Sequence record: OL739525.1
From: Escherichia phage dw-ec
Reading direction: 5' to 3' (one strand)
Length of the DNA: 64,000 nucleotides
In this document: positions 2,674-15,794 of the stretch, one piece after another
Layout of the letters: each line of letters starts with the position of its first letter
Position numbering within the stretch: position 1 is the first letter of the stretch
Notes under the pieces: model-generated
The model's database searches: none
What the model saw: the letters and a program-made list of their open reading frames with translations, nothing else
What the model was told of the DNA's origin: nothing
Translations under genes and position numbers: made by a program

Positions 2674-3758
2674 TAGAAGTCAAGCTCCTCATCATCAGAG
2701 AGATCTTTGTTAGCTGAATTCAATTTGTAATTAGTTAACTGAATCTCTTGGGCTGCTGACTGAATCAAATCAGGATTCAACCATTTTTCCATCCAAGCTA
2801 AAGGACTATGTTTAGGTGCTTTAAACTTGGCTTTCATTTTCAATCGACGATAAATAGGAGCAGCATTGAAATAAACCCACTGTTTAGACAATTCGGCGTT
2901 AAGACCTACAATAAAACGACCTTCACTAAACAGGTAGTCACACCACTGTTCCTCTTGTTCAACAACAGTGTCGAGGATCAAAGTCAACTCTTCAATATTG
3001 TCTTCGTAAATTTTACGCCAAATTGGGTCATGCATCAATGCATCAATTACAGCATAATCCATCTTAACATGCAAGATTTCATCTAGCATAATTTTCTGGA
3101 TCAGCTTACAAGCCCCAACAAACAATTGTTGTTCTGCCATAGCAAAAGTAGCAGAGAAGGAAGATATAAACTGAATACCTTCTAATCCAATCAGGGCTAC
3201 CATCCCTTTAAGAATCAGCAATCGAAGTTCATCGTTAGCTTCAATCAATCCTAGAGCATACTTATGACCAGCTTCTTCCAACTGACCCATGATATCAGCA
3301 ATGATACCCATACGATTGAAAATTTTATCATTAATCATAATCTGATTGATGACTTCAATTGGATCTGGAGTACATTGACGAATTATTTCAGAATACGTTA
3401 ACGCATGGAGAACTTCCATTTCACTCTGCTTCATCATCATAGCACAGGCTTCATTGTTACTCAAGAATGGAGAGAACAAAGTGATGATTGATTTTGCAAG
3501 AGAATCATTTTCCCATTGGAACGATAAGTTTTTAATCATAACATCATAGTTGTTTTTAGAACAAGCTACGAAATCTTTACGTGTCTGATCCAAGTTAACT
3601 TCGTTTTCATCCCAATCTTGTGCTTTTTGAAGTTTGTAGAGTTTGTGCATTTCTGGATAAGTTACGTTAACAGAATCAAAGATCCCTAATTGCTCCCCCA
3701 AAAATACTGGATATTTTCCTGTTTTGTAAACTTCGTTGTGTAAATTAATTGCTGCCAT
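2673..3758 (-). CDS. nrdB: ribonucleotide reductase class Ia small subunit
   Basis: 361 aa; recognised as NrdB by overall sequence character and size, adjacent to nrdA. Confidence 0.9.
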   Translation of the reverse strand: MAAINLHNEVYKTGKYPVFLGEQLGIFDSVNVTYPEMHKLYKLQKAQDWDENEVNLDQTRKDFVACSKNNYDVMIKNLSFQWENDSLAKSIITLFSPFLSNNEACAMMMKQSEMEVLHALTYSEIIRQCTPDPIEVINQIMINDKIFNRMGIIADIMGQLEEAGHKYALGLIEANDELRLLILKGMVALIGLEGIQFISSFSATFAMAEQQLFVGACKLIQKIMLDEILHVKMDYAVIDALMHDPIWRKIYEDNIEELTLILDTVVEQEEQWCDYLFSEGRFIVGLNAELSKQWVYFNAAPIYRRLKMKAKFKAPKHSPLAWMEKWLNPDLIQSAAQEIQLTNYKLNSANKDLSDDEELDF

Positions 3759-4083
3759 TTAAATCCTCCACTATTTCACAAAAACCTCTTAAGCTTAAAA
3801 TATCTTCTTCCTCAAAATCATTGCTCCGGTAGAAAGCTTCCAGTGCTTCCCATACGCTTCTACCAAGTATAACAGTCACTGTTTCTTCACTTCTTGCCCT
3901 TGTTATTGCGTAAGCCGTGGCTTCTGGATAAAAAGATTCCCAAATCTGCATGTTAGCTATTTCAAGACCGCCAAGATAATGGTGACACCAAGTAGGGGTA
4001 AAATCTTCAGGGCGAATCAACAGAGGCTTAAACCCAGGTCGGTAGATTGGGGTTACTCCAGGTAAAACTATAAGTGTGCTCAT
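3745..4083 (-). CDS. hypothetical protein between nrdA and nrdB (about 112 aa)
   Basis: Track ORF 3745..4152 trimmed to the ATG at 4083 that follows GAGGAGG RBS and lies downstream of the nrdA terminator hairpin. Confidence 0.5.
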   Translation of the reverse strand: MSTLIVLPGVTPIYRPGFKPLLIRPEDFTPTWCHHYLGGLEIANMQIWESFYPEATAYAITRARSEETVTVILGRSVWEALEAFYRSNDFEEEDILSLRGFCEIVEDLNGSN

Positions 4084-4093
4084 AATCCTCCTC

Positions 4094-4116
4094 AATAAAA
4101 AGGGGCTGAAGCCCCT
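4094..4116 (-). terminator. intrinsic terminator after nrdA (possible attenuator before nrdB)
   Basis: AGGGGC-TGAA-GCCCCT hairpin with T-run on the minus strand directly after the nrdA stop. Confidence 0.5.
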
Positions 4117-4123
4117 AGTTTCA

Positions 4124-6364
4124 TCACATCTTGCAAGCTTCACAACCACCATCAGAATCTTCTTGTGCTAAAGAGTCTGCTGATTTTGTTCTACTATTAA
4201 GGTAATACAACGACTTACCACCCAGTCTAGCAAAATTCAGAATAAACTGCATCTCAGCTTTCACTGATAAACGTCCACCTACCAATTTAGAATAATCTAG
4301 CCAAGAATCACAAGAAATTCCTTGGTCCGTAAACTTGGTAAAGATACCATACATTTCTGCAAGGTCTTTAGCCGGAGTGTCCCAGGCGGACTGGTAGAAC
4401 ATTTTCAGTTTTTCGTAGTCTGGAACAATAAATAATACACTACCTTTCTGACTTTGTTTATACATAATAGTATCACGAACAGGATACAGAGAGTTAGTAG
4501 TATTGCTTACCAAACTGCTGGACTCATTAGGTGCGATAGCAGCCAAGACACTGTTACGGATACCACCTTGTTCAATGATTTCAGCACGTAAGCCTTCCCA
4601 GTCCATTTTAAGATCAAAATTACCGATACTATCTACTGTTTTAGCATAAGTGTCAATTGGTAGCCAACCTTGAGGCCATTTGGTCTTATCAATCCATTCC
4701 GCATTACCTTTTTCCTTAGCCAGACGCAGAGAGGCTTTTGCCAACCAGAAGTAATGACGTTCTGCAAGTTCATGCATTAATTTTTTAGCGTAAGCATCTG
4801 AATAATTTACAAAATTACTTGCCAAGTAATGCGCTAAGTTTGTAATGCCTACACCAATAGATCTACGTGCTTTAGCAGTTATTTCGTTATGTTTAAATGG
4901 ATAATCCATTGTTTCAATAACGTTGTCAATTGTCAATACAGTGTAGTATGCAACATCCTCATATTCTTCAGGTAAGACACGACCAGCAACAATAGAAGAT
5001 AAGAAGCATAAAGCCAACTCTTGATCTTCTGTATTCTCACCAGTAAAGAGATCCGGCATACTGTGGAAAGCTTTAGTTGGTAAGAAGATCTCTTGACACA
5101 GGTTTGATTGATACACCGTATCCAGGAAAGGTGTATGGTTGTTAACGTTGTCAGCAAAGAACATGTAAATACGTCCTGTTTCTGCACGTTGAACAATAAT
5201 CTCTGTCAGAAGATCACGAGCCTTAACAAATTTTTTCTTAATGCGACGACGGCTTACTTTGTCATAAACTGCATCAAACTCTTCTTCACTTTTATACAAA
5301 GCTTCATAAAGTTCAGGAGCATCATCACAACTAACTAACATCCAATCTTCGTTTTTTGCTGCTCGACGCAAGAATGAACGGTTAACAACAATAGAATAAT
5401 CCAGTTTGTCTACTCGTTTATCTATAGGTGTTGTTGGATTCTTCAGTCGAATCAGATCGTCGAAGTCTGGTTCAAGTATGGTAAAGGTAACTGTAGCACT
5501 ACCTCCACGGCTTGCTTGCTTCGAAGCTCCAACACTATCTTCCATCCATTTCAGATACGGAAGAAGACCACCATGAATAATACGATTATTCTTAACACCT
5601 TGACCTGTGGCACGAGTTTGAAGATTAACACCAATACCTGCGTTATTCAACGTATACTCATGAGCTAAGTAATTAGCAATGGCTAAAGACTCTGCTGTGT
5701 CATCTGCACGGAATAAACAACAAGACGCACTTCCTTTGATTGGAGTTCGTAGAGTTGTCAGATATGGTGATGGCAGATTAATCTTAAGATCGCTAACATA
5801 AGTATACAGTTTTTTAATATCTTCTATACGGCGTTCTTTTGGTTGGATCTCCATAACCTTCATTGCGATACCAATGAAAAGAAACTGTGGAGACTCATGC
5901 ACCACATCGTTTACTGCATCTCGGATAAGATATTTATCCACCATCTGACGTAAAACAGAATAGCCATAAGTTAGATTTTTATTATGCTTTACAATCTTAC
6001 CAATTTCTTTGATCTCTTCATCAGTATAATCCATTTTAGCCCAATGTCCACGTTCTACCATATCATGATAAAAGGTATTCAGTGAAGGGATACTGTGGTA
6101 TCCCCCATGAGCCTGTTTGTAAATCATACCCAGAAGAAGTCTTCCTGCCATATCACTGTAAGCTTGTGTTTTCTTGTCAATACACGCTGCAATCATTGCT
6201 TTATGCAGATCACGTGTAGACACACCGTCATAACACCGCTTCACAGCTTCTAATTCAATTTCAGACCAGTTTAGTTTACCTGCTGCAAATTCAGACCACT
6301 TGCGAAGTTTTTCTGGATTAAACTCCTCTGTCTTACCGTTAGATTTAGTTACAAAACGAATCAA
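4124..6364 (-). CDS. nrdA: ribonucleotide reductase class Ia large subunit
   Basis: 746 aa; recognised as NrdA by overall sequence character and size, with C-terminal Cys residues. Confidence 0.92.
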   Translation of the reverse strand: MIRFVTKSNGKTEEFNPEKLRKWSEFAAGKLNWSEIELEAVKRCYDGVSTRDLHKAMIAACIDKKTQAYSDMAGRLLLGMIYKQAHGGYHSIPSLNTFYHDMVERGHWAKMDYTDEEIKEIGKIVKHNKNLTYGYSVLRQMVDKYLIRDAVNDVVHESPQFLFIGIAMKVMEIQPKERRIEDIKKLYTYVSDLKINLPSPYLTTLRTPIKGSASCCLFRADDTAESLAIANYLAHEYTLNNAGIGVNLQTRATGQGVKNNRIIHGGLLPYLKWMEDSVGASKQASRGGSATVTFTILEPDFDDLIRLKNPTTPIDKRVDKLDYSIVVNRSFLRRAAKNEDWMLVSCDDAPELYEALYKSEEEFDAVYDKVSRRRIKKKFVKARDLLTEIIVQRAETGRIYMFFADNVNNHTPFLDTVYQSNLCQEIFLPTKAFHSMPDLFTGENTEDQELALCFLSSIVAGRVLPEEYEDVAYYTVLTIDNVIETMDYPFKHNEITAKARRSIGVGITNLAHYLASNFVNYSDAYAKKLMHELAERHYFWLAKASLRLAKEKGNAEWIDKTKWPQGWLPIDTYAKTVDSIGNFDLKMDWEGLRAEIIEQGGIRNSVLAAIAPNESSSLVSNTTNSLYPVRDTIMYKQSQKGSVLFIVPDYEKLKMFYQSAWDTPAKDLAEMYGIFTKFTDQGISCDSWLDYSKLVGGRLSVKAEMQFILNFARLGGKSLYYLNSRTKSADSLAQEDSDGGCEACKM

Positions 6365-6380
6365 CTTCTCCTCCCTATTA

Positions 6381-6635
6381 TTAATGCATATTCAAAACAT
6401 CTACATCATAACCGAACTTCATTTCATTAAAAAGTCCATTAGCATATAGAAAACCTTCAAAATGAGTTATGTCATCAAACCCTTTTGCTTTTGCTCGACG
6501 GTCTGCTTCTTGTCTTTTAGGAGATAAACGTTTTGAAGTGTCTAGAATTACAGTTACATTACAACCAACAGTTTCATCAAAATAGACTTCGATTTCACAG
6601 CCTTCATATTTATTATCAGTCATTGTCCCTCTCAT
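6381..6635 (-). CDS. hypothetical protein (84 aa)
   Basis: ORF track. Confidence 0.45.
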   Translation of the reverse strand: MRGTMTDNKYEGCEIEVYFDETVGCNVTVILDTSKRLSPKRQEADRRAKAKGFDDITHFEGFLYANGLFNEMKFGYDVDVLNMH

Positions 6636-7052
6636 TGATTAGTATCATCTGCTTTCGCAGGATCATAAGAGTTACCGAAATCATCCATCTTAATATGTGA
6701 CGCACCCCAACCTGTAAATTCTTCATCACCAAAATGAAAAATATCATTTTCTTGATAGATTCGTTTAAAACCACAATTAGGTGAAACAGGGAAAGTGAAA
6801 AGCGTTGTATTTGCAAACACTACTCGCTTATCGTTATTGCTTCGGATATTCACATTACGCTCAACAGAATAGTGTGAATCTTCAGCCATACCCAGCATTA
6901 CAAGCGACGCTCTAATAACAGCATTTTGTTTCTCGTGTGGGATATTGCCATTGTGTTTATTTGATTCTAGTTTCCAGATAGGGGTAGACATTACAGTAGA
7001 CATGCTTACGGTAGCCCAAGTTGTAGTATTTACTAATGACATATTTTCTCCT
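6632..7052 (-). CDS. hypothetical protein (about 140 aa)
   Basis: Track ORF 6632..7075 trimmed to ATG at 7052 preceded by AAGGAG RBS. Confidence 0.5.
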
Positions 7053-8775: not shown

Positions 8776-8803
8776 TAGTATAGTTATCTTATACTAACTT
8801 TCA
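8776..8803 (-). promoter_or_regulatory. sigma70-like promoter (TTGAAA-16-TATACT)
   Basis: Minus-strand hexamers upstream of the 8757 start. Confidence 0.4.
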
Positions 8804-9369
8804 ATTTCCTGCAATAGGATTTTGACTATTTGTTTACGGCGTTTCGCTACTGTGCTTTCAGGTTCTATTTTACGCTTCTTCAGCCATGCTTTATCTTTCT
8901 TAGCTCTGCACAAAGCTATCGCTTCTTTTTCAGCTTTCGCTTCTTCAAAAGATATGCCTTGCTTGTCTGCATAAGCAAGAATAGAGTTGCACAATTTACA
9001 AACCATTCGCAAATCTTCTTCTTTCACATAGATCAAACGGAAAACAAAAAGGGGAATATCCTCAAAACATTGAAGTTGTTTTGCTGCGTGAATATGATCC
9101 ACTTGGAAGTCTTTCATTCCTCCTCTGTGTCCACATATTTCGCACTCACAATTCCAAACTTGTTTTGGTTTTCCAGTTTTCTTGTCTATCATTACATTGC
9201 CGTCTTTATCTACACGATCAACTTTAAAACGCCTTGCATTGATAACCTTAATTTTATTAGGGTGTCTCATCCATGCTTTTCTAAAACATCCCCTAAGATA
9301 AGTATAAAATTCAGCTTGTGTTTTCCAGGGTGTTCCTTCACCCCACATTATTTTTGGTTCACCTGCCAA
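8794..9369 (-). CDS. HNH endonuclease (free-standing, homing-endonuclease-like)
   Basis: CECEICGH...FQVDHIHAAKQ...CKLCN HNH motif; 191 aa. Confidence 0.7.
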   Translation of the reverse strand: MAGEPKIMWGEGTPWKTQAEFYTYLRGCFRKAWMRHPNKIKVINARRFKVDRVDKDGNVMIDKKTGKPKQVWNCECEICGHRGGMKDFQVDHIHAAKQLQCFEDIPLFVFRLIYVKEEDLRMVCKLCNSILAYADKQGISFEEAKAEKEAIALCRAKKDKAWLKKRKIEPESTVAKRRKQIVKILLQEIES

Positions 9370-9412
9370 TATTGCTCACCTTTTTAGCTGTATATTCCCC
9401 TGGTGGGATATT

Positions 9413-9447
9413 GTGTTTAAAAAACAAAAGGCGGTCTAACCCCGCCT
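9413..9447 (-). terminator. intrinsic terminator
   Basis: AAGGCGG-loop-CCGCCTT hairpin followed by T-run on the minus strand, between the 9537..9938 gene and the HNH gene. Confidence 0.5.
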
Positions 9448-9536
9448 TGCACATTGTTTCTGGAATAGTCAAAGTTAGTAAAAGTTTATCACCTTTTCGG
9501 TTGAATATTTTATAAACTTCTCCTGCTCCATATTGT

Positions 9537-9938
9537 TTAGTATTGCTCGCCACTAATACGTTCCTTAAGTTGTTTAATAGCTTCGATTGCATCTACATAA
9601 GAAGAGTTATACATGTGTTTCAGTGCTACTCGTACTAAAGGATCTTTTGTGAAGAAATCAATAAGAAGCATAGCTTGATCATGTTTAGCTGCATTTGTCA
9701 TAGATGGATAATTTTCACGAACCATATACGTGTTATTTTGCATAAGGGTTCTTTCTAGTTCAATACAATGAATAGCTTTATCTAGGTTAATCTGACGTTC
9801 ACCTTTAATACGTGTTGCGTATTTTGCCAATTTGCAAAAACAAGGTGTGCCACCAACCAAATAAGCTAGTTCAATAGGTTGCATTGCCATTTTTGTGTAG
9901 TGATCACCGTCAACCTGATTATCAAAAGCATTAGACAT
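9537..9938 (-). CDS. DUF3310-like phage protein
   Basis: GDHY...IELAYLVGGTPCFCKLAKYATRIKGE...DLDKAIHCIELE resembles the DUF3310 signature. Confidence 0.45.
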   Translation of the reverse strand: MSNAFDNQVDGDHYTKMAMQPIELAYLVGGTPCFCKLAKYATRIKGERQINLDKAIHCIELERTLMQNNTYMVRENYPSMTNAAKHDQAMLLIDFFTKDPLVRVALKHMYNSSYVDAIEAIKQLKERISGEQY

Positions 9939-10158
9939 AATTTTCCTCCTGAATTCCTACTGCGCCTTCTTCTGGGTAATCTGTATAATAAGCTACCCTA
10001 CCTTGATAGATAACATCACCATCATCATTGTAGATTGCTGTATCTTCTTGAATTGTTATTTCAACGTCAAGTAAATCTGGGTCTTTCTCGATGGTATAGT
10101 TTAAACCTAACATTTCAAACAGTTCGAAAATTTCGTTACCTGTTAATGTAATGCTCAT
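9931..10158 (-). CDS. hypothetical protein (about 75 aa)
   Basis: Track ORF 9931..10203 trimmed to ATG after AGGAGG RBS; the longer start would overlap the promoter. Confidence 0.45.
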   Translation of the reverse strand: MSITLTGNEIFELFEMLGLNYTIEKDPDLLDVEITIQEDTAIYNDDGDVIYQGRVAYYTDYPEEGAVGIQEENYV

Positions 10159-10174
10159 ATTTCCTCCTTTTATT

Positions 10175-10204
10175 GTGGTTAGCAGAGTATACACTAATAT
10201 CAAA
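10175..10204 (-). promoter_or_regulatory. sigma70-like promoter (TTGACA-17-TATACT)
   Basis: Consensus hexamers on minus strand immediately after the upstream terminator. Confidence 0.5.
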
Positions 10205-10205
10205 T

Positions 10206-10229
10206 TTTTGTCAATAAAAAAGGGAGCAA
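10206..10229 (-). terminator. intrinsic terminator
   Basis: GGGAGC-loop-GCTCCC hairpin plus T-run on the minus strand after the 10245 stop. Confidence 0.55.
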
Positions 10230-10244
10230 TAAGCTCCCTGATTA

Positions 10245-11204
10245 TTAGATTCCAATAATAGTTGCTGCTCGTTTATCTTTGGATCTGGTGTTTGCTCTAC
10301 TACGTGACAAACCTCCACAAGATTCACAACGAATGATATCGAAAGAACTTACCGCAGTGTGGTATTGCTTACCAGTAACAACGTGAACATGATCACTGCC
10401 GCAACGAGAACAACGGACTTTCTCATCTGGGTAATAAGCGGATAAGTTAGGATGCTGTGGAATCCACGGAAGGATTTTCATATACAAATCACGAAGTGAA
10501 ACAACATCACCATCATTGTAAATCTGCATACGTTCAAAAGCATCACGATCACCTTCACAACATGCTTTCCATAAAGGGAACCCCTCGTTATCCAGTTTTT
10601 CACTTTCTGTTTCAAAATACGCTCCCATCTCTTTAAGAGAATTGGAAGGAAGTGCAAACTGTTTCTTAGCTGCCTTCAAGGTATCAACAACTACATAGTT
10701 AGAAGGTGGAGCCATATCATGATATGCGAAGCGTTGGTTAATGTATGCACGGTCAAACTTGTACCCATTGTGAGCCACAACAACATCAGCTTCATTCAGA
10801 AGATTCCAAAGATCTTGGCAAAGTTCCCAATCATCTGTATGATCGATATCGAAAAGAGGATAAGAAGATAAGTTCTTACCTTCTACTTCACCTGTATACA
10901 AATCAGCAGAAGAGTAAGATAACAAATAACCCCTACGAATTACCTGGTCTGGAGAAATGAAGGCTTTGAATCGACGGAAAGTATATGCAATCTCTGGTGC
11001 AGTTTCAACATCAATAATTTTAATAACTGGTTGTTTCTTTTTAACTGGCTCTTGTTTACTTGCACCGAAACGTGCAAGAAAATCATTTACTGTGCTTTTT
11101 CTTGTTGGACTACCTAAAACAATTGCTGCAATATTGCGAGAAGACATACCCTCTGCACTCATACTAAGGATATCTGCTTTCTGCTCTTCTGTTAATCTGC
11201 TCAC
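10245..11204 (-). CDS. DEDD-family 3-prime to 5-prime exonuclease with N-terminal HTH and C-terminal zinc ribbon
   Basis: IDVETA (Exo I), HNGYKFD (Exo II), YNDGD (Exo III); N-terminal sigma-region-4-like HTH; C-terminal CSRCG...CESCGG. Confidence 0.6.
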   Translation of the reverse strand: MSRLTEEQKADILSMSAEGMSSRNIAAIVLGSPTRKSTVNDFLARFGASKQEPVKKKQPVIKIIDVETAPEIAYTFRRFKAFISPDQVIRRGYLLSYSSADLYTGEVEGKNLSSYPLFDIDHTDDWELCQDLWNLLNEADVVVAHNGYKFDRAYINQRFAYHDMAPPSNYVVVDTLKAAKKQFALPSNSLKEMGAYFETESEKLDNEGFPLWKACCEGDRDAFERMQIYNDGDVVSLRDLYMKILPWIPQHPNLSAYYPDEKVRCSRCGSDHVHVVTGKQYHTAVSSFDIIRCESCGGLSRSRANTRSKDKRAATIIGI

Positions 11205-12319
11205 TCTGCCTCCTGTTGTGAGATGTATGACTGAAGCATACTCTCAAATGTTGTATCGTCATTATCCCAGCGTTTCATGTATACCAACTGGAAAATTGTT
11301 TCTATCCATTCATCTGTTGTCATATGGACTTCTTCTCCATCCCAAGAAGTAAAATTAACGCCATCTGGGAACCACGAGTAGTAAGTATCTTTAACTGTTT
11401 GGAAAAGTTCTGCTTGAGTTTTACAAGCTGAAAGAAGATTAAAACAAGTAATATCTCCGAACTTAATATCAAAATCTTGATAAGGTCGGATACTATCTGT
11501 TTTATCTCCCATTAGCATCTGATAGGCTAACCAATAACTTCCCCAACCTTTAACTTCTTTCTTTTTACCTTTATCTACGATCCATATGTCGCCAATAGAC
11601 TCGTCAATAAGAATTATATCTGGATTTTTAAATACTCCATCCTCTTTGTAGAAATTAAAAAGGATACTAGGAGTATGTAAACTATCTTTATCTATAGACA
11701 CTACGATATAAGAAAATTTACCCGTCCTTTTATAATCTTTATAACCTTGGAAACCATACTTCTCTAACTCATCGTCAGCCTCTATTACAGTAACAACATC
11801 ACCATTGTGGAACTCCACAAGATAATCTTTGGTTTCTGAAAGCTGAAGTGGTTTGATATCTAATCGTTCAGATTTATATTCTACAGGCATTTTGAAGGCG
11901 TGTCTGAAAGTTTTTCCTACGCCAATAACCCCGCAATATTTTTCTAAACGTAGATGTTTTAGAATACCTAAGACTTTTGTTTTAGCTGCTTGGAAGGTGT
12001 GTCCGATATCTTCTGGCGGGTATTGCTTATCAATAATTTCGAACTCTTCCTTTGTGAAGGGACGTTTGTTTTTGGAGGCTCTTTCTGCATTTGTATCTCC
12101 TAGCCAACCTCCAATTTTAGTCTTACTTTTACCCCAAAACTCTGTCTTATTTTTAAATTCCTTTTGAGCACCTGAAGGGATGTGCTTCGCAATGATTGTT
12201 CTTTTCTCTAATGCAGACGCTGCTTGGAAAGCGATCTGATCATAATCAATTGCAGCTATTGTTTCTTCGTTGACATATAAATGAAGATCTTCAGGTTTAA
12301 TTAAAATATAACCGCTAAT
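11201..12319 (-). CDS. T4 RNase H-like 5-prime to 3-prime exonuclease / flap endonuclease (start codon unresolved)
   Basis: Track ORF 11201..11890 is preceded by about 145 in-frame stop-free codons; combined product has AIDYDQIAFQ, EADD, DESIGD and LMGDKTDSI landmark blocks; no ATG/GTG/TTG in the N-terminal part, candidate ATT start at 12319 after AGGGGGA. Confidence 0.55.
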   Translation of the reverse strand: MSGYILIKPEDLHLYVNEETIAAIDYDQIAFQAASALEKRTIIAKHIPSGAQKEFKNKTEFWGKSKTKIGGWLGDTNAERASKNKRPFTKEEFEIIDKQYPPEDIGHTFQAAKTKVLGILKHLRLEKYCGVIGVGKTFRHAFKMPVEYKSERLDIKPLQLSETKDYLVEFHNGDVVTVIEADDELEKYGFQGYKDYKRTGKFSYIVVSIDKDSLHTPSILFNFYKEDGVFKNPDIILIDESIGDIWIVDKGKKKEVKGWGSYWLAYQMLMGDKTDSIRPYQDFDIKFGDITCFNLLSACKTQAELFQTVKDTYYSWFPDGVNFTSWDGEEVHMTTDEWIETIFQLVYMKRWDNDDTTFESMLQSYISQQEAE

Positions 12320-12331
12320 ATTTCCCCCTAA

Positions 12332-12541
12332 TTATTCATCGTCATCCTCTGTTGAGAATGTTTTAGTATACGGACATTGACGACTTTTCGGGATTGCTAT
12401 AACTTCATCTTGGTTAGCGTTAGAATAGTAGCAATATTTTGTGTTGCCATTAACTTCAGAATCAGACAAGATTAAAGTAATTTGACCTGCTGCTACTGTG
12501 AAACTAAAAGCTAAAAGAACGACTGTCAGAATCTTTTTCAT
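12332..12541 (-). CDS. small secreted protein (signal-peptide-like N-terminus, 69 aa)
   Basis: MKKILTVVLLAFSFTVAAGQ hydrophobic leader; AGGAGG RBS; its TAA stop is in frame with the downstream nuclease reading frame. Confidence 0.5.
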   Translation of the reverse strand: MKKILTVVLLAFSFTVAAGQITLILSDSEVNGNTKYCYYSNANQDEVIAIPKSRQCPYTKTFSTEDDDE

Positions 12542-12580
12542 AACGCCTCCTAAAAAGCCTACCTCATTAAGTAGGTAGGC

Positions 12581-12609
12581 ATAATATCATAACTAATCCC
12601 GCAAGTCAA
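12581..12609 (-). promoter_or_regulatory. sigma70-like promoter (TTGACT-17-TATTAT) followed by a 5-prime UTR hairpin
   Basis: Hexamers on minus strand; GCCTACCT-loop-AGGTAGGC hairpin between -10 and RBS. Confidence 0.4.
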
Positions 12610-12613
12610 GAAC

Positions 12614-13492
12614 TTATTTAAGGATTGTTGCTTTGGTTAAATCTTCCATCAGACCTCGAATCTCATTGAAGCACAGAAGGACTGAAGCTTCAATACTACC
12701 TTCTTCGTCTGCAAAATATTTCGGAAAACGTAGTTTAGAAAGTTTAAACTCTTTATCCACTACAAAATCTACAACACCGTCATATTCAAGACCGATTGCA
12801 ACCACATCTTTACCATCTTCTTTTAGTTCGACAGCTTTAGACTCATATAAGGATTCTTTACTCCAAACAACAACGCCCTCGCTATCCTCCATTTTGATAT
12901 AATTTCCGAGAGTAATACGATCTGCTTCGTGATTCTCCAGCAATTCACCAAAACCTTTTACAATAGCTTCTTCGTGCACACTAAAACCTACTGAAGGGAA
13001 AGTCCCCAGAACGGAACGGAGGAAAGAAGTAATCTCTTCTGCAACCTTTTTACTTCCATTAAGAACATAAAGAAGATTCGTAGTTTTATCCAAGACAACA
13101 TAGTTAAAGAAATCTTCAGGTTCTGTTTCAGGCAATAGTGCAAATTCAATATCTTCCTTCATTGCTTTGACTACTTCTTTATCGACATAAAACTCTTTAC
13201 CCTCGCTCTCCATGTCCTGACGCATTTCTTCTAGACGTTCATTCAGAATACGTTTAACTTTCTTTTTATCTACCTTCTTCACAGATTGACCTACATTAAG
13301 TAGTTCAAGATCTGAAAACTCTTTTACAAATTTAGAGTCATCTTCGAAACGAACAAGACCGATGGTGTGGGACTGGGAGCCTTCTGCTGTTACAAATTCC
13401 AGAGGAATATCTGTAATGCTGTTAAGGGATGCTACAGAAGCATTGTCACCAACAACCATAGGCAGAGCGGATTTAAAAGATTTTACAAACAT
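12614..13492 (-). CDS. RdgC-like recombination-associated protein
   Basis: LLYVLNGSKKVAEEITSFLRSVLGTFPSVGFSVHEE resembles a central RdgC block; 292 aa matches family size. Confidence 0.5.
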   Translation of the reverse strand: MFVKSFKSALPMVVGDNASVASLNSITDIPLEFVTAEGSQSHTIGLVRFEDDSKFVKEFSDLELLNVGQSVKKVDKKKVKRILNERLEEMRQDMESEGKEFYVDKEVVKAMKEDIEFALLPETEPEDFFNYVVLDKTTNLLYVLNGSKKVAEEITSFLRSVLGTFPSVGFSVHEEAIVKGFGELLENHEADRITLGNYIKMEDSEGVVVWSKESLYESKAVELKEDGKDVVAIGLEYDGVVDFVVDKEFKLSKLRFPKYFADEEGSIEASVLLCFNEIRGLMEDLTKATILK

Positions 13493-13548: not shown

Positions 13549-14274
13549 TTACTTGTTAATAATACCTGCAATATTAGGTTTGACAAAGGTCGATGGTTTC
13601 ATGATCTTACCTTTATCATCAAAGAACACATACACTTTCTGTTTTTCATTATAAACAGCATGAACACCAGTGTATGCCCCTTCTGGACGATTGGCATTTC
13701 GTTCTTCAATTGCAGCGCATTCTTGTGCAATGGCTGAATCGATATCCGAAGTTTTCCAAGTTTTCAGCAACTGTTGTTTAGTTGGATACTTGGAATCATT
13801 ACTTTTCAATACCTCTTTAATAACTTTCTTTTCTGGATATTTTGAACGGATTAGAGTGTCACGAGACATACGCATAATACCAGCAGCCATTAGTGCCATT
13901 TGAACTGGCTCTGTAAATGTTTGTTCCAAAGCATCAAAATCAGTATACACAGTTGGAGTAAAAACATCGCCTACAGCATAGTCCAAGAAATTCATCGTAT
14001 GTTCTTCACCAAAGAACATGTAAGTCAGATAACTGGATACTACAAAAATATCTGCTGCTGCATCCAAGAGTTCTACATGATCGTTTACTTTCGCGGCTGT
14101 TTCATACTCTTTAAGCTCTTCACGAACGAACCCGATTTGGGACATAAATAGCTCTTGAGTGAATTCAGGTTGTTCACCACCTCGTGCTTTGGCATTCCAA
14201 TCAATCACGTGCTTTGCTGCATTTTTGAAAAATTCAGTATCGAATTTAATATCTTTAAAAAAATTCTCGATCAT
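13549..14274 (-). CDS. MazG-like NTP pyrophosphohydrolase (all-alpha)
   Basis: REELKEYETAAKVNDHVELLDAAADIF EExxE...D motif pattern; 241 aa. Confidence 0.45.
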   Translation of the reverse strand: MIENFFKDIKFDTEFFKNAAKHVIDWNAKARGGEQPEFTQELFMSQIGFVREELKEYETAAKVNDHVELLDAAADIFVVSSYLTYMFFGEEHTMNFLDYAVGDVFTPTVYTDFDALEQTFTEPVQMALMAAGIMRMSRDTLIRSKYPEKKVIKEVLKSNDSKYPTKQQLLKTWKTSDIDSAIAQECAAIEERNANRPEGAYTGVHAVYNEKQKVYVFFDDKGKIMKPSTFVKPNIAGIINK

Positions 14275-14283
14275 TATAACTCC

Positions 14284-14466
14284 TTATTTAAAATAGCTTT
14301 CTAGAAAGTTGCTAATATTTACTACAGTCTCACCCATGTAAATTCCTGCGAAACCGAAAACAAGCATACGTGGAATATTGAAATACCATTTATCCGCCGG
14401 AAAAGATGCCAGAATTACAATAGCAATTGCTATCAACATCATAAGAATTGTTGCTAAAATTATCAT
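14284..14466 (-). CDS. small membrane protein (about 60 aa)
   Basis: Track ORF trimmed to the Met after a GGAGG RBS; hydrophobic segments. Confidence 0.4.
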   Translation of the reverse strand: MIILATILMMLIAIAIVILASFPADKWYFNIPRMLVFGFAGIYMGETVVNISNFLESYFK

Positions 14467-14657
14467 AAAAATGCCTCCAGGTATTTTGCACAATGGTAAG
14501 CTAAGAAACAAGAAACTACCGCATACCCAACTCCAGACATACATGAATCAATCGCAATACATACGGTTCTTTTCTTTGAATTCTTAGGAAAGCTTTCCGA
14601 AGCATTCATACAATAAAAAGAAAGCACACTGAAAACGATTAAAATGGCTAAGAACAT
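14463..14657 (-). CDS. small membrane protein (64 aa)
   Basis: ORF track; N-terminal hydrophobic helix MFLAILIVFSVLSFY. Confidence 0.4.
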   Translation of the reverse strand: MFLAILIVFSVLSFYCMNASESFPKNSKKRTVCIAIDSCMSGVGYAVVSCFLAYHCAKYLEAFL

Positions 14658-14666
14658 TTTTCCTCC

Positions 14667-15794
14667 TTATTCTGCTGGTTCCCAAGTGCCTGGGATCATT
14701 TCTCGAATACGAACACCAACAGGTTTTGTTGGAATACCTTCATCTGAAAATTCTTCATACTCTATTTCAACGAACTGATTAATCAAGGTAGAAGCATTCT
14801 CTGCTTTACGATAATTGATAGTCTCATGAGCATCTTTACGCATTAAGAATTCGACTACTTTACCATTTTCCATCTCACCTGTCAACACTCCATCACCATT
14901 TTTATCACTTTTTGAATTTGTTACTTTAACTTCAAGGGTGTGGCGAGGCTTACGTTTAATAACGTCATAAGAACGTTTATCAAATTCGTAAACTCCGTGA
15001 GCATTACGATATACTACACCTTCAGCTTTCTCAAGTAAAGCTTTTTCATAGAAAGCATCAAACTGTTCTTGGTTTTCAATATACTCTGTATGAACTACAC
15101 AAATAAGCTCGTCAAGACCATAATCTTCAACTACTGCCTTAAGAGCAGTAAGAACATCAACACGTTTTTCAAACGGTAGATCTGGAACTGGAATATCGTA
15201 TACGTAATAATTCAGCAAAGGTGTATTTGCATTATGCTTCTTCCAGGCACTGTTAATTTGTTGCAGACTAAGGACACCTAACCCAGCAAACACTTCACCA
15301 TCAAGAGGATGACCAACAACTTCACTAATAAAGTTTGGAATACCTTTCCAATGAGGTGGCAGGTTATACACTTCCCCAGCTTTTGATAAACACTCCCCTT
15401 TCATGTTAATCATAGAACGTAACCCGTTCAGTTTGTATTGTGCATAACCAGGGAACACAACCCTTTCAGGATAATCTTTATAATCCTGGCATTTCATTGG
15501 TGTAGAAGGAACATGGTTTTCAGCTTCTTCTTTTGTTTTATAATAGCCATTCTTTAACTGTTTTGTCCATTTGGCAAAAGCTTCAAGTTCAGCTTGTTCT
15601 TCTGGTGTTGTTTCATTGGAACGACCGATGTTTTTTGCTTCTGCTGTATAAGATTTTTCTGTGATTTTTCCACCTACCCTTCCATGAGCTACAGTAACAA
15701 CTGCACCATCTGTATACACTGTCCACTGTTTAAGTTTTCCTTTTGAATCTTTACCATACAGCGTTTGATTTGTTTGTTGCATTAGTCCTCCCAT
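14667..15794 (-). CDS. ATP-dependent DNA ligase
   Basis: KLNGLR adenylation motif (KxNG) with nucleotidyltransferase and OB-like C-terminal region; 375 aa. Confidence 0.8.
   Translation of the reverse strand: MGGLMQQTNQTLYGKDSKGKLKQWTVYTDGAVVTVAHGRVGGKITEKSYTAEAKNIGRSNETTPEEQAELEAFAKWTKQLKNGYYKTKEEAENHVPSTPMKCQDYKDYPERVVFPGYAQYKLNGLRSMINMKGECLSKAGEVYNLPPHWKGIPNFISEVVGHPLDGEVFAGLGVLSLQQINSAWKKHNANTPLLNYYVYDIPVPDLPFEKRVDVLTALKAVVEDYGLDELICVVHTEYIENQEQFDAFYEKALLEKAEGVVYRNAHGVYEFDKRSYDVIKRKPRHTLEVKVTNSKSDKNGDGVLTGEMENGKVVEFLMRKDAHETINYRKAENASTLINQFVEIEYEEFSDEGIPTKPVGVRIREMIPGTWEPAE

Follow-up and report, generated by a model that had tools for sequence, protein, structure and literature searches.

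A stretch of 64,000 nucleotides of Escherichia phage dw-ec (sequence record OL739525.1), referred to here as the window, contains on its minus strand, at positions 10245-11204, a gene that starts with GTG and encodes a protein of 319 amino acids. This is a real open reading frame (ORF), and its product combines a helix-turn-helix (HTH), a DEDDy-type 3'-5' exonuclease core and a zinc ribbon. The best explanation overall, which we favour with moderate confidence, is that the protein is a stand-alone accessory exonuclease that is tethered to DNA and trims 3' ends, with the breakdown of DNA for nucleotide salvage as its favoured role. It is a further member of a known, very widespread and uncharacterised phage family, PHROG 403, whose database name, "DNA polymerase exonuclease subunit", is probably misleading.

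Domain architecture and catalytic residues

A first-pass annotation of the window had described this gene as encoding an HTH, a DEDD exonuclease and a C-terminal double CxxC zinc ribbon in a single protein, an assignment that depended on a DEDD profile match and on conservation of the catalytic residues in homologues. Profile searches, an alignment and a structural model bear out this architecture over the whole gene. The PHROG 403 profile matches residues 5-318 (E 6.8e-107), and the Pfam family PF13482 (RNase_H_2) matches with 39.1 bits at a cut-off of 22; besides PHROG 403 and PHROG 17, no PHROG profile matched the protein at E ≤ 0.01. We aligned 46 homologues, with identities down to 27%, and an AlphaFold2 model based on the homologue alignment has a mean pLDDT of 93.6. 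Residues D65, E67, D140, D151 and Y229 are invariant among the homologues, and N146, F150, D233, C265, C268, C293 and C296 are conserved in at least 90% of them; these sets include all the residues of the putative catalytic site (D65, E67, D151, Y229 and D233).

The exonuclease core comprises residues 61-257 (10434-11024, on the minus strand like all other features of the gene) and is delimited by the profile, the alignment, the model and fold matches. It has the RNase H-like alpha/beta fold, and the closest folds are the editing domains of PolB polymerases. The three motifs of the DEDDy class are all present: Exo I (DxE) as IIDVETA at 10998-11018, containing D65 and E67; Exo II (NxxxFD) as AHNGYKFD at 10752-10775, containing N146, F150 and D151 and close to the FHNGHKYD of T7 gp5; and Exo III (YxxxD) as YNDGD at 10506-10520, containing Y229 and D233. 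Because a tyrosine is found at Exo III, the protein belongs to the DEDDy class and not to the DEDDh class of DnaQ/epsilon. From its sequence, we predict that it has the activity of a metal-dependent 3'-5' exonuclease. A phmmer search of the PDB sequences with the protein, and a search with a hidden Markov model of the 46 homologues, were made for a solved close relative; both gave remote matches only, the best with the latter having an E value of 1e-5.

The HTH occupies residues 1-46 (11067-11204), which form three helices in the model (residues 6-17, 22-30 and 33-46) and contain the recognition-helix motif KSTVNDFL. No HTH family of Pfam matched the protein itself at E ≤ 1 when the full sequence was used, or at E ≤ 0.05 with residues 1-60. 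Aligned relatives do match such families, namely HTH_38 (seven relatives), HTH_23 (seven), Sigma70_r4_2 (four) and GerE (three), and also HTH_SB and HTH_7. The HTH had been called sigma-region-4-like. Given these matches of the relatives, the term can stand for the fold class; the nearest profiles are those of transposase/resolvase-type HTHs. A Lys-rich linker modelled with lower confidence (residues 47-60, 11025-11066; pLDDT ~75) connects the HTH to the exonuclease core. As judged from the alignment and the model, the C-terminus is a C4 zinc ribbon (residues 262-305, 10290-10421; C265-x2-C268 ... C293-x2-C296) with predicted metal binding. Three beta strands within residues 273-305 of the model carry both CxxC pairs, and several relatives match zinc-ribbon families of Pfam.

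Gene start and source phage

The GTG start is preceded at a distance of 4 nt by the Shine-Dalgarno sequence AGGAGG (11209-11214), and it shares the tetranucleotide GTGA (11201-11204) with the TGA stop of the upstream gene, an overlap that implies translational coupling. The N-termini of the homologues in the alignment conserve the sequence MSRLTEEQK. Together, the conserved N-terminus, the AGGAGG and the GTGA overlap support GTG as the start codon.

The source is a coliphage of the genus Phapecoctavirus (phAPEC8-like, Stephanstirmvirinae). A 4-kb query (positions 9000-13000 of the window) is 99.8% identical to Escherichia phage ETEC-TG and 99.7% identical to phage anhysbys, and the records of both phages label the gene "DNA polymerase exonuclease subunit".

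The exonuclease belongs to a widespread phage family

Relatives of the protein were detected by tblastn in 1,587 of 50,697 phage records, that is, in ~3% of sequenced phage genomes. They include rV5-like phages (~38% identity over the full length), KPP10-like phages, phiKMV-like podoviruses, ICP1, a T4-like Aeromonas phage, Xanthomonas and Burkholderia phages, and 609 mycobacteriophages, where the gene is named "DnaQ-like". Searching 1.84 billion representative proteins with a profile gave 7,560 clusters at E ≤ 1e-3, with 4,862 at E ≤ 1e-10, and at least 448 stretches in IMG/VR encode a relative. In BFVD, the protein Q0E5Y0 of phage LKA1 is a structural match over the full length. The fusion had been regarded as unusual, a view that these numbers contradict: the architecture is common in phages, and the family is among the commoner DNA-metabolism genes of tailed phages. 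The phage PF13482 proteins have been described before as cluster F.23, an uncharacterised family of predicted exonucleases (Majorek et al. 2014; PMC3985635).

The orthologue in Bas54 is dispensable

According to a transposon-sequencing preprint (HIDEN-SEQ; doi 10.1101/2025.11.20.689424), the Bas54 gene bas54_0192, a "DnaQ-like 3'-5' exonuclease" of 984 nt, is non-essential, with 45 of its 50 TA sites disrupted, and shows no significant change in one row of an insertion-count comparison (log2 fold change 0.12, p 0.82). The nearby 5'-exonuclease gene bas54_0197 is essential (1 of 72 TA sites disrupted), and dexA of T4 also tolerates insertions (doi 10.1101/2025.11.20.689424). We drew the orthology of bas54_0192 via phage ime, also a Vequintavirus, and not from the Bas54 sequence. 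Gene by gene, ime agrees with the Bas54 table in size and order, and the 984-nt gene ime_32 is a full-length tblastn match of the dw-ec protein.

The phage polymerases carry their own editing motifs

The polymerase of the phage corresponds to gp008 of anhysbys, a T7 gp5-like PolA of 1110 amino acids that is encoded ~90 kb away from the exonuclease gene and outside the window. Its N-terminus contains an Exo I motif (FTWDIEANG) and an Exo II motif (VAHNGINYD) that align to the editing domain of T7 gp5, and the string YCIYD, which lies outside the aligned region, fits the YxxxD pattern of Exo III. The T7 gp5 sequence used for this comparison agrees with the T7 gp5 segment in a search alignment. 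When the gp008 N-terminus alone was used in a phmmer search of the PDB, no matches were found. All five related PolA polymerases that are encoded within 10 kb of family members and have a readable N-terminus possess Exo I and Exo II motifs of their own, and a PolB phage carrying a gene of the family has PF03104 in its own polymerase. We also considered whether the exonuclease might be a recent duplicate of the gp008 editing domain, and rejected this: BLASTP aligns only the Exo II motif (E 0.15). As a separate observation, related PolA polymerases of 759-885 amino acids align only to residues ~1-585 and 836-1110 of gp008 (3565-6897 of locus L003); residues ~586-835 have no Pfam match and look like a lineage-specific insertion.

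These results bear on the possibility that the protein is a trans-acting proofreading subunit, which would bind the phage or the host replicative polymerase and edit misincorporated nucleotides. Such a role is what the name of PHROG 403 and of many GenBank records ("DNA polymerase exonuclease subunit" or "DnaQ-like") implies; polymerase editing domains have the same fold as the protein and the same kind of Exo II and Exo III motifs, the exonuclease region of gp008 weakly matches PHROG 403 (E 2e-4), and the non-essentiality of the Bas54 orthologue is compatible with a role in fidelity. We nevertheless consider it improbable. Neither a DEDDh site nor a partner polymerase devoid of an editing site was found: the residue at Exo III is an invariant tyrosine and not the histidine that defines DnaQ/epsilon, and the distant PolA of the phage, the readable PolA polymerases near the relatives and the PolB all have exonuclease motifs or domains themselves. 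Moreover, there are no polymerase fusions among the best 150 representatives of the family, and epsilon has nothing that corresponds to the DNA-binding additions, the HTH and the zinc ribbon. The name "polymerase subunit" is unsupported for this protein. That the nuclease is something other than a polymerase proofreading subunit had been proposed in the first-pass annotation, and the proposal gains indirect support from the exonuclease motifs of PolA and PolB and from the dispensable Bas54 orthologue.

The N-terminal module is exchanged between family members

We compared the architectures of the family at 55 non-redundant loci. The exonuclease core is present in almost every member and the two Cys pairs in nearly all of them; the N-terminal module of ~50-70 residues differs between members. 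Its classes are the HTH of the type described here, a "KPY..MGAGKLAK" type, a Cys/His-rich type and a NUMOD1-like type, and in proteins of ~250 amino acids the module is absent. HTH_23/38, Sigma70_r4_2/GerE and NUMOD1 modules were assigned with Pfam, and the Cys/His-rich and "KPY..MGAGKLAK" types by inspection of the sequences. Nearly all of the best 150 of the 7,560 related clusters have a length of 255-350 amino acids. Ten longer members were scanned, and no recognisable polymerase, helicase or primase domain was found in them; an intein was recognised in one of them and a NUMOD1 or HTH N-terminus in three, and the additional sequence of the others matched no assignable domain. The intein-containing member, P0188 (497 amino acids), has a Hint/intein-splicing module inserted inside its exonuclease domain, and three others, P0135, P0193 and P0216 (571-587 amino acids), have a large insertion inside the exonuclease domain. 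Inteins usually reside in important, conserved enzymes of DNA metabolism.

Since the N-terminal module is replaced by unrelated small DNA-binding modules or is missing altogether, a generic tethering to DNA fits better than recognition of one conserved target site. If anything, this exchange of modules weakens the view, put forward in the first-pass annotation, of a sequence-targeted or regulator-linked nuclease. A bolder possibility, which we regard as quite improbable, is that the interchangeable modules direct the exonuclease to particular DNA, for instance to a competing mobile element or to specific sites or structures in the chromosome of the host, and that the different lineages have retargeted the same core. 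If the modules did act as such address tags, the family would represent "addressable" exonucleases, similar to modular homing endonucleases except for their exonucleolytic chemistry, and its task would be the selective destruction of non-phage DNA and not general housekeeping.

Gene neighbourhood

The exonuclease gene follows, on the same strand, the coupled gene of a FEN-type 5'-nuclease (PHROG 107). Further upstream are genes for an RdgC-like protein (12614-13492), a MazG-like pyrophosphohydrolase and an ATP-dependent DNA ligase. In the downstream direction, the same strand carries three small ORFs and then genes for an HNH endonuclease, an NT5C 5'-nucleotidase, ThyX and ribonucleotide reductase (RNR) subunits. 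The order 5'-exonuclease ... (EndoVII) ... exonuclease ... ThyX ... RNR recurs in phAPEC8-like phages, in rV5-like phages (ime) and in ICP1. The phiKMV-like phage JG068 has a similar order of FEN, EndoVII and "DNA exonuclease" genes, the last of which is unconfirmed as a member of the family. As contextual evidence, this conserved neighbourhood of nucleases and enzymes handling deoxynucleoside monophosphates (dNMPs) is compatible with the role in host DNA degradation or processing that had been suggested earlier.

Among the loci listed, FEN lies upstream of the family gene on the same strand in 15 of 15, and phmmer found FEN within ~10 kb of the family gene in 22 of 86 loci. Distant members adjoin NT5C, MazG, ThyX and RNR genes, or genes for a dUTPase or a dNMP kinase. 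A Pfam scan of 150 neighbours from ~50 non-redundant loci, among them loci of crAss-like phages and of phages encoding a T7-like RNA polymerase, identified 5_3_exonuc four times and Thy1, PDDEXK_1, DNMK and SLT three times each. We rejected the idea of one fixed partner gene across the family, as there is no dominant partner in the 86 loci or among the 150 neighbours. The only tendencies seen are those towards FEN and towards dNMP enzymes, and they are strongest in the rV5/phAPEC8/ICP1 group.

Some further features of this region may be mentioned. The HNH endonuclease gene (PHROG 1985; 8794-9369, minus strand) is an insertion that separates the exonuclease block from the NT5C and ThyX genes, and in relatives this module likewise contains scattered genes for similar HNH or homing endonucleases. 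Two genes downstream of the exonuclease gene, an ORF of 133 amino acids (PHROG 10946; 9537-9938, minus strand) encodes a "DHYTKMAMQPIELA" motif that is reminiscent of DUF3310; Pfam gave no match to this ORF at E ≤ 0.01, and a DUF3310 protein is encoded at the corresponding position beside the homologue in locus L009 (9225-9791). The GC skew changes sign at ~22 kb of the window, where the genes switch from the minus to the plus strand, and in the relative anhysbys repeat regions and a tRNA cluster are located just past this point.

The upstream FEN gene probably starts at an AUU codon

The upstream FEN gene is annotated, and was called as an ORF, with a length of 229 amino acids, but its reading frame extends without interruption as far upstream as the TAA that ends the preceding gene. 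A conserved N-terminal peptide, ISG[YF]I.IK[PL]EDL..YV.E, precedes any ATG, GTG or TTG in the window and in loci L014 and L015; in L011 and L016, a GTG is present but is located downstream of the peptide. An ATT conserved in all five lineages follows a Shine-Dalgarno-like sequence (GGGGGA, GGAGGA or GGAGGT) at a distance of 5-7 nt. Because of the conserved peptide and the position of this ATT, we propose that FEN translation probably starts with AUU at 12319, which would correct the annotation and give a 5'-3' exonuclease of ~372 amino acids (11201-12319, minus strand). This length matches that of relatives (~350-380 amino acids) and of the essential 5'-exonuclease gene of Bas54 (1140 nt). An in-frame stop or a frameshift was ruled out, the frame being open and simply lacking a canonical start codon. 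In locus L001, the corresponding FEN gene is at 14202-15320.

Upstream of FEN is an ORF of 69 amino acids (PHROG 4641; 12332-12541, minus strand) whose N-terminus (MKKILTVVLLAFSFTVAAG) resembles a signal peptide. The ORF ends in a TAA that is in frame with the downstream FEN gene in the window and in L014, which is probably coincidental.

Discussion

The proposed role of the protein can be summarized as follows. Its catalytic core would have descended from the lineage of editing domains of family B and T7-type polymerases, and would act as an accessory DNA-end-processing enzyme and not as a replicative proofreader. The zinc ribbon, which is found family-wide, and the HTH, which is one of several interchangeable modules, may hold the enzyme on DNA, where the core would trim 3' ends, presumably of DNA rather than RNA. 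The exonuclease and the essential FEN would be made from one transcript by coupled translation. Nicked or fragmented DNA, derived from the host chromosome or from by-products of replication and recombination, may be degraded to dNMPs, and these would feed the neighbouring salvage enzymes, namely the 5'-nucleotidase, ThyX, RNR and the MazG-like enzyme. The protein would in this way be a functional analogue of T4 DexA.

Several points weigh against the proposal of an accessory salvage exonuclease. Non-essentiality is equally expected of a redundant proofreader or of an anti-defence gene. The neighbourhood signal is weak beyond the rV5/phAPEC8/ICP1 group, most distant loci having no recognisable partner, and phage genes for replication and nucleotide metabolism cluster together anyway. 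The DEDDy class includes RNases (RNase D, Rrp6), and DNA as the substrate is therefore something that we infer. Finally, our literature searches found no biochemical study of any member of the family.

The close second among the explanations, which we regard as possible if rather unlikely, is that of a recombination or repair nuclease that removes 3' tails or mismatched 3' termini from intermediates of recombination or replication restart, in cooperation with the FEN, RdgC-like, EndoVII and ligase genes in its operon, and that has no special role in salvage. The coupled FEN, the RdgC-like protein and the ATP-dependent ligase encoded in the window fit this explanation, as do the EndoVII and 5'-exonuclease genes that flank the orthologue in rV5-like phages (and the unconfirmed gene of JG068) and the PD-(D/E)XK nucleases among the recurrent neighbours. 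On the other hand, genes for dNMP-handling enzymes occur among the neighbours no less often, and no recombinase is consistently linked; sequence data alone cannot separate this role from one in salvage.

The two remaining explanations assign the enzyme to other nucleic acids. A counter-defence nuclease would destroy host immune nucleic acid, such as retron msDNA or guide and signalling oligonucleotides, with the N-terminal module tuned to its target. The variability of that module and the dispensability of the orthologue in a laboratory host would be expected in this case, but no PADLOC model matched at E ≤ 0.01, the insertion-count row for bas54_0192 shows no significant change, and the gene is fixed in a core DNA-metabolism operon of distantly related phages and not in a variable early region; we regard such a function as very improbable. 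The least probable explanation in our opinion is an RNA 3'-end processing enzyme of the RNase D/T type that matures phage tRNAs or other RNAs. The phage does encode 10 or more tRNAs, along with a tRNA nucleotidyltransferase and RNA ligases; however, the nearest folds are editing domains of DNA polymerases, the neighbours encode DNA enzymes, and the family abounds in mycobacteriophages and phiKMV-like podoviruses (~42 kb), many of these phages having few tRNA genes or none.

The family does not amount to a new type of system, and the dispensability of the orthologue suggests an auxiliary role. Establishing its function would allow thousands of annotations to be corrected, and would clarify DNA-end processing and nucleotide recycling in large lytic phages. 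In addition, the constant exonuclease/zinc-ribbon core with its swappable heads would lend itself well to studies of how tethering tunes a non-specific nuclease.

Comparison with known systems

The closest known system is the phage cluster of PHROG 403/PF13482 itself, exemplified by Q0E5Y0 of LKA1, gp189 of ICP1 and the "putative DNA polymerase/exonuclease" of rV5-like phages. By sequence and predicted structure, the protein is a full-length member of this cluster, whose members share the exonuclease/zinc-ribbon core and often the same HTH. The editing domains of family B and T7-type family A polymerases (PDB 5mdn, 4flt, 3k57 and 2ajq) are part of polymerases and have no HTH or zinc ribbon, whereas the protein is free-standing and has both; the sequence likeness to them is limited to the motifs, with a best PDB profile E value of ~1e-5. 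E. coli DnaQ, the epsilon subunit of Pol III, differs in being a DEDDh enzyme with a histidine in Exo III, and it has a C-terminal alpha-binding tail in place of the zinc ribbon and no HTH.

T4 DexA is, like the protein analysed here, a stand-alone and dispensable 3'-5' DEDD exonuclease of a phage, and it has been linked to the breakdown of DNA to mononucleotides. The analogy is functional only, DexA being a DEDDh enzyme without an HTH or a zinc ribbon; the PHROG search, with its matches to PHROGs 403 and 17 alone, gave no sign of sequence kinship with DexA. Modular homing endonucleases resemble the family in carrying small modules (NUMOD1, HTH_23-type and Cys/His-rich) on a nuclease core and in exchanging them among relatives. 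Their core, however, is a GIY-YIG, HNH or LAGLIDADG endonuclease and not an exonuclease. Moreover, unlike homing endonuclease genes, the exonuclease gene occupies a fixed syntenic position in the relatives examined (the rV5-like phage ime and ICP1), among which it shows no sign of mobility.

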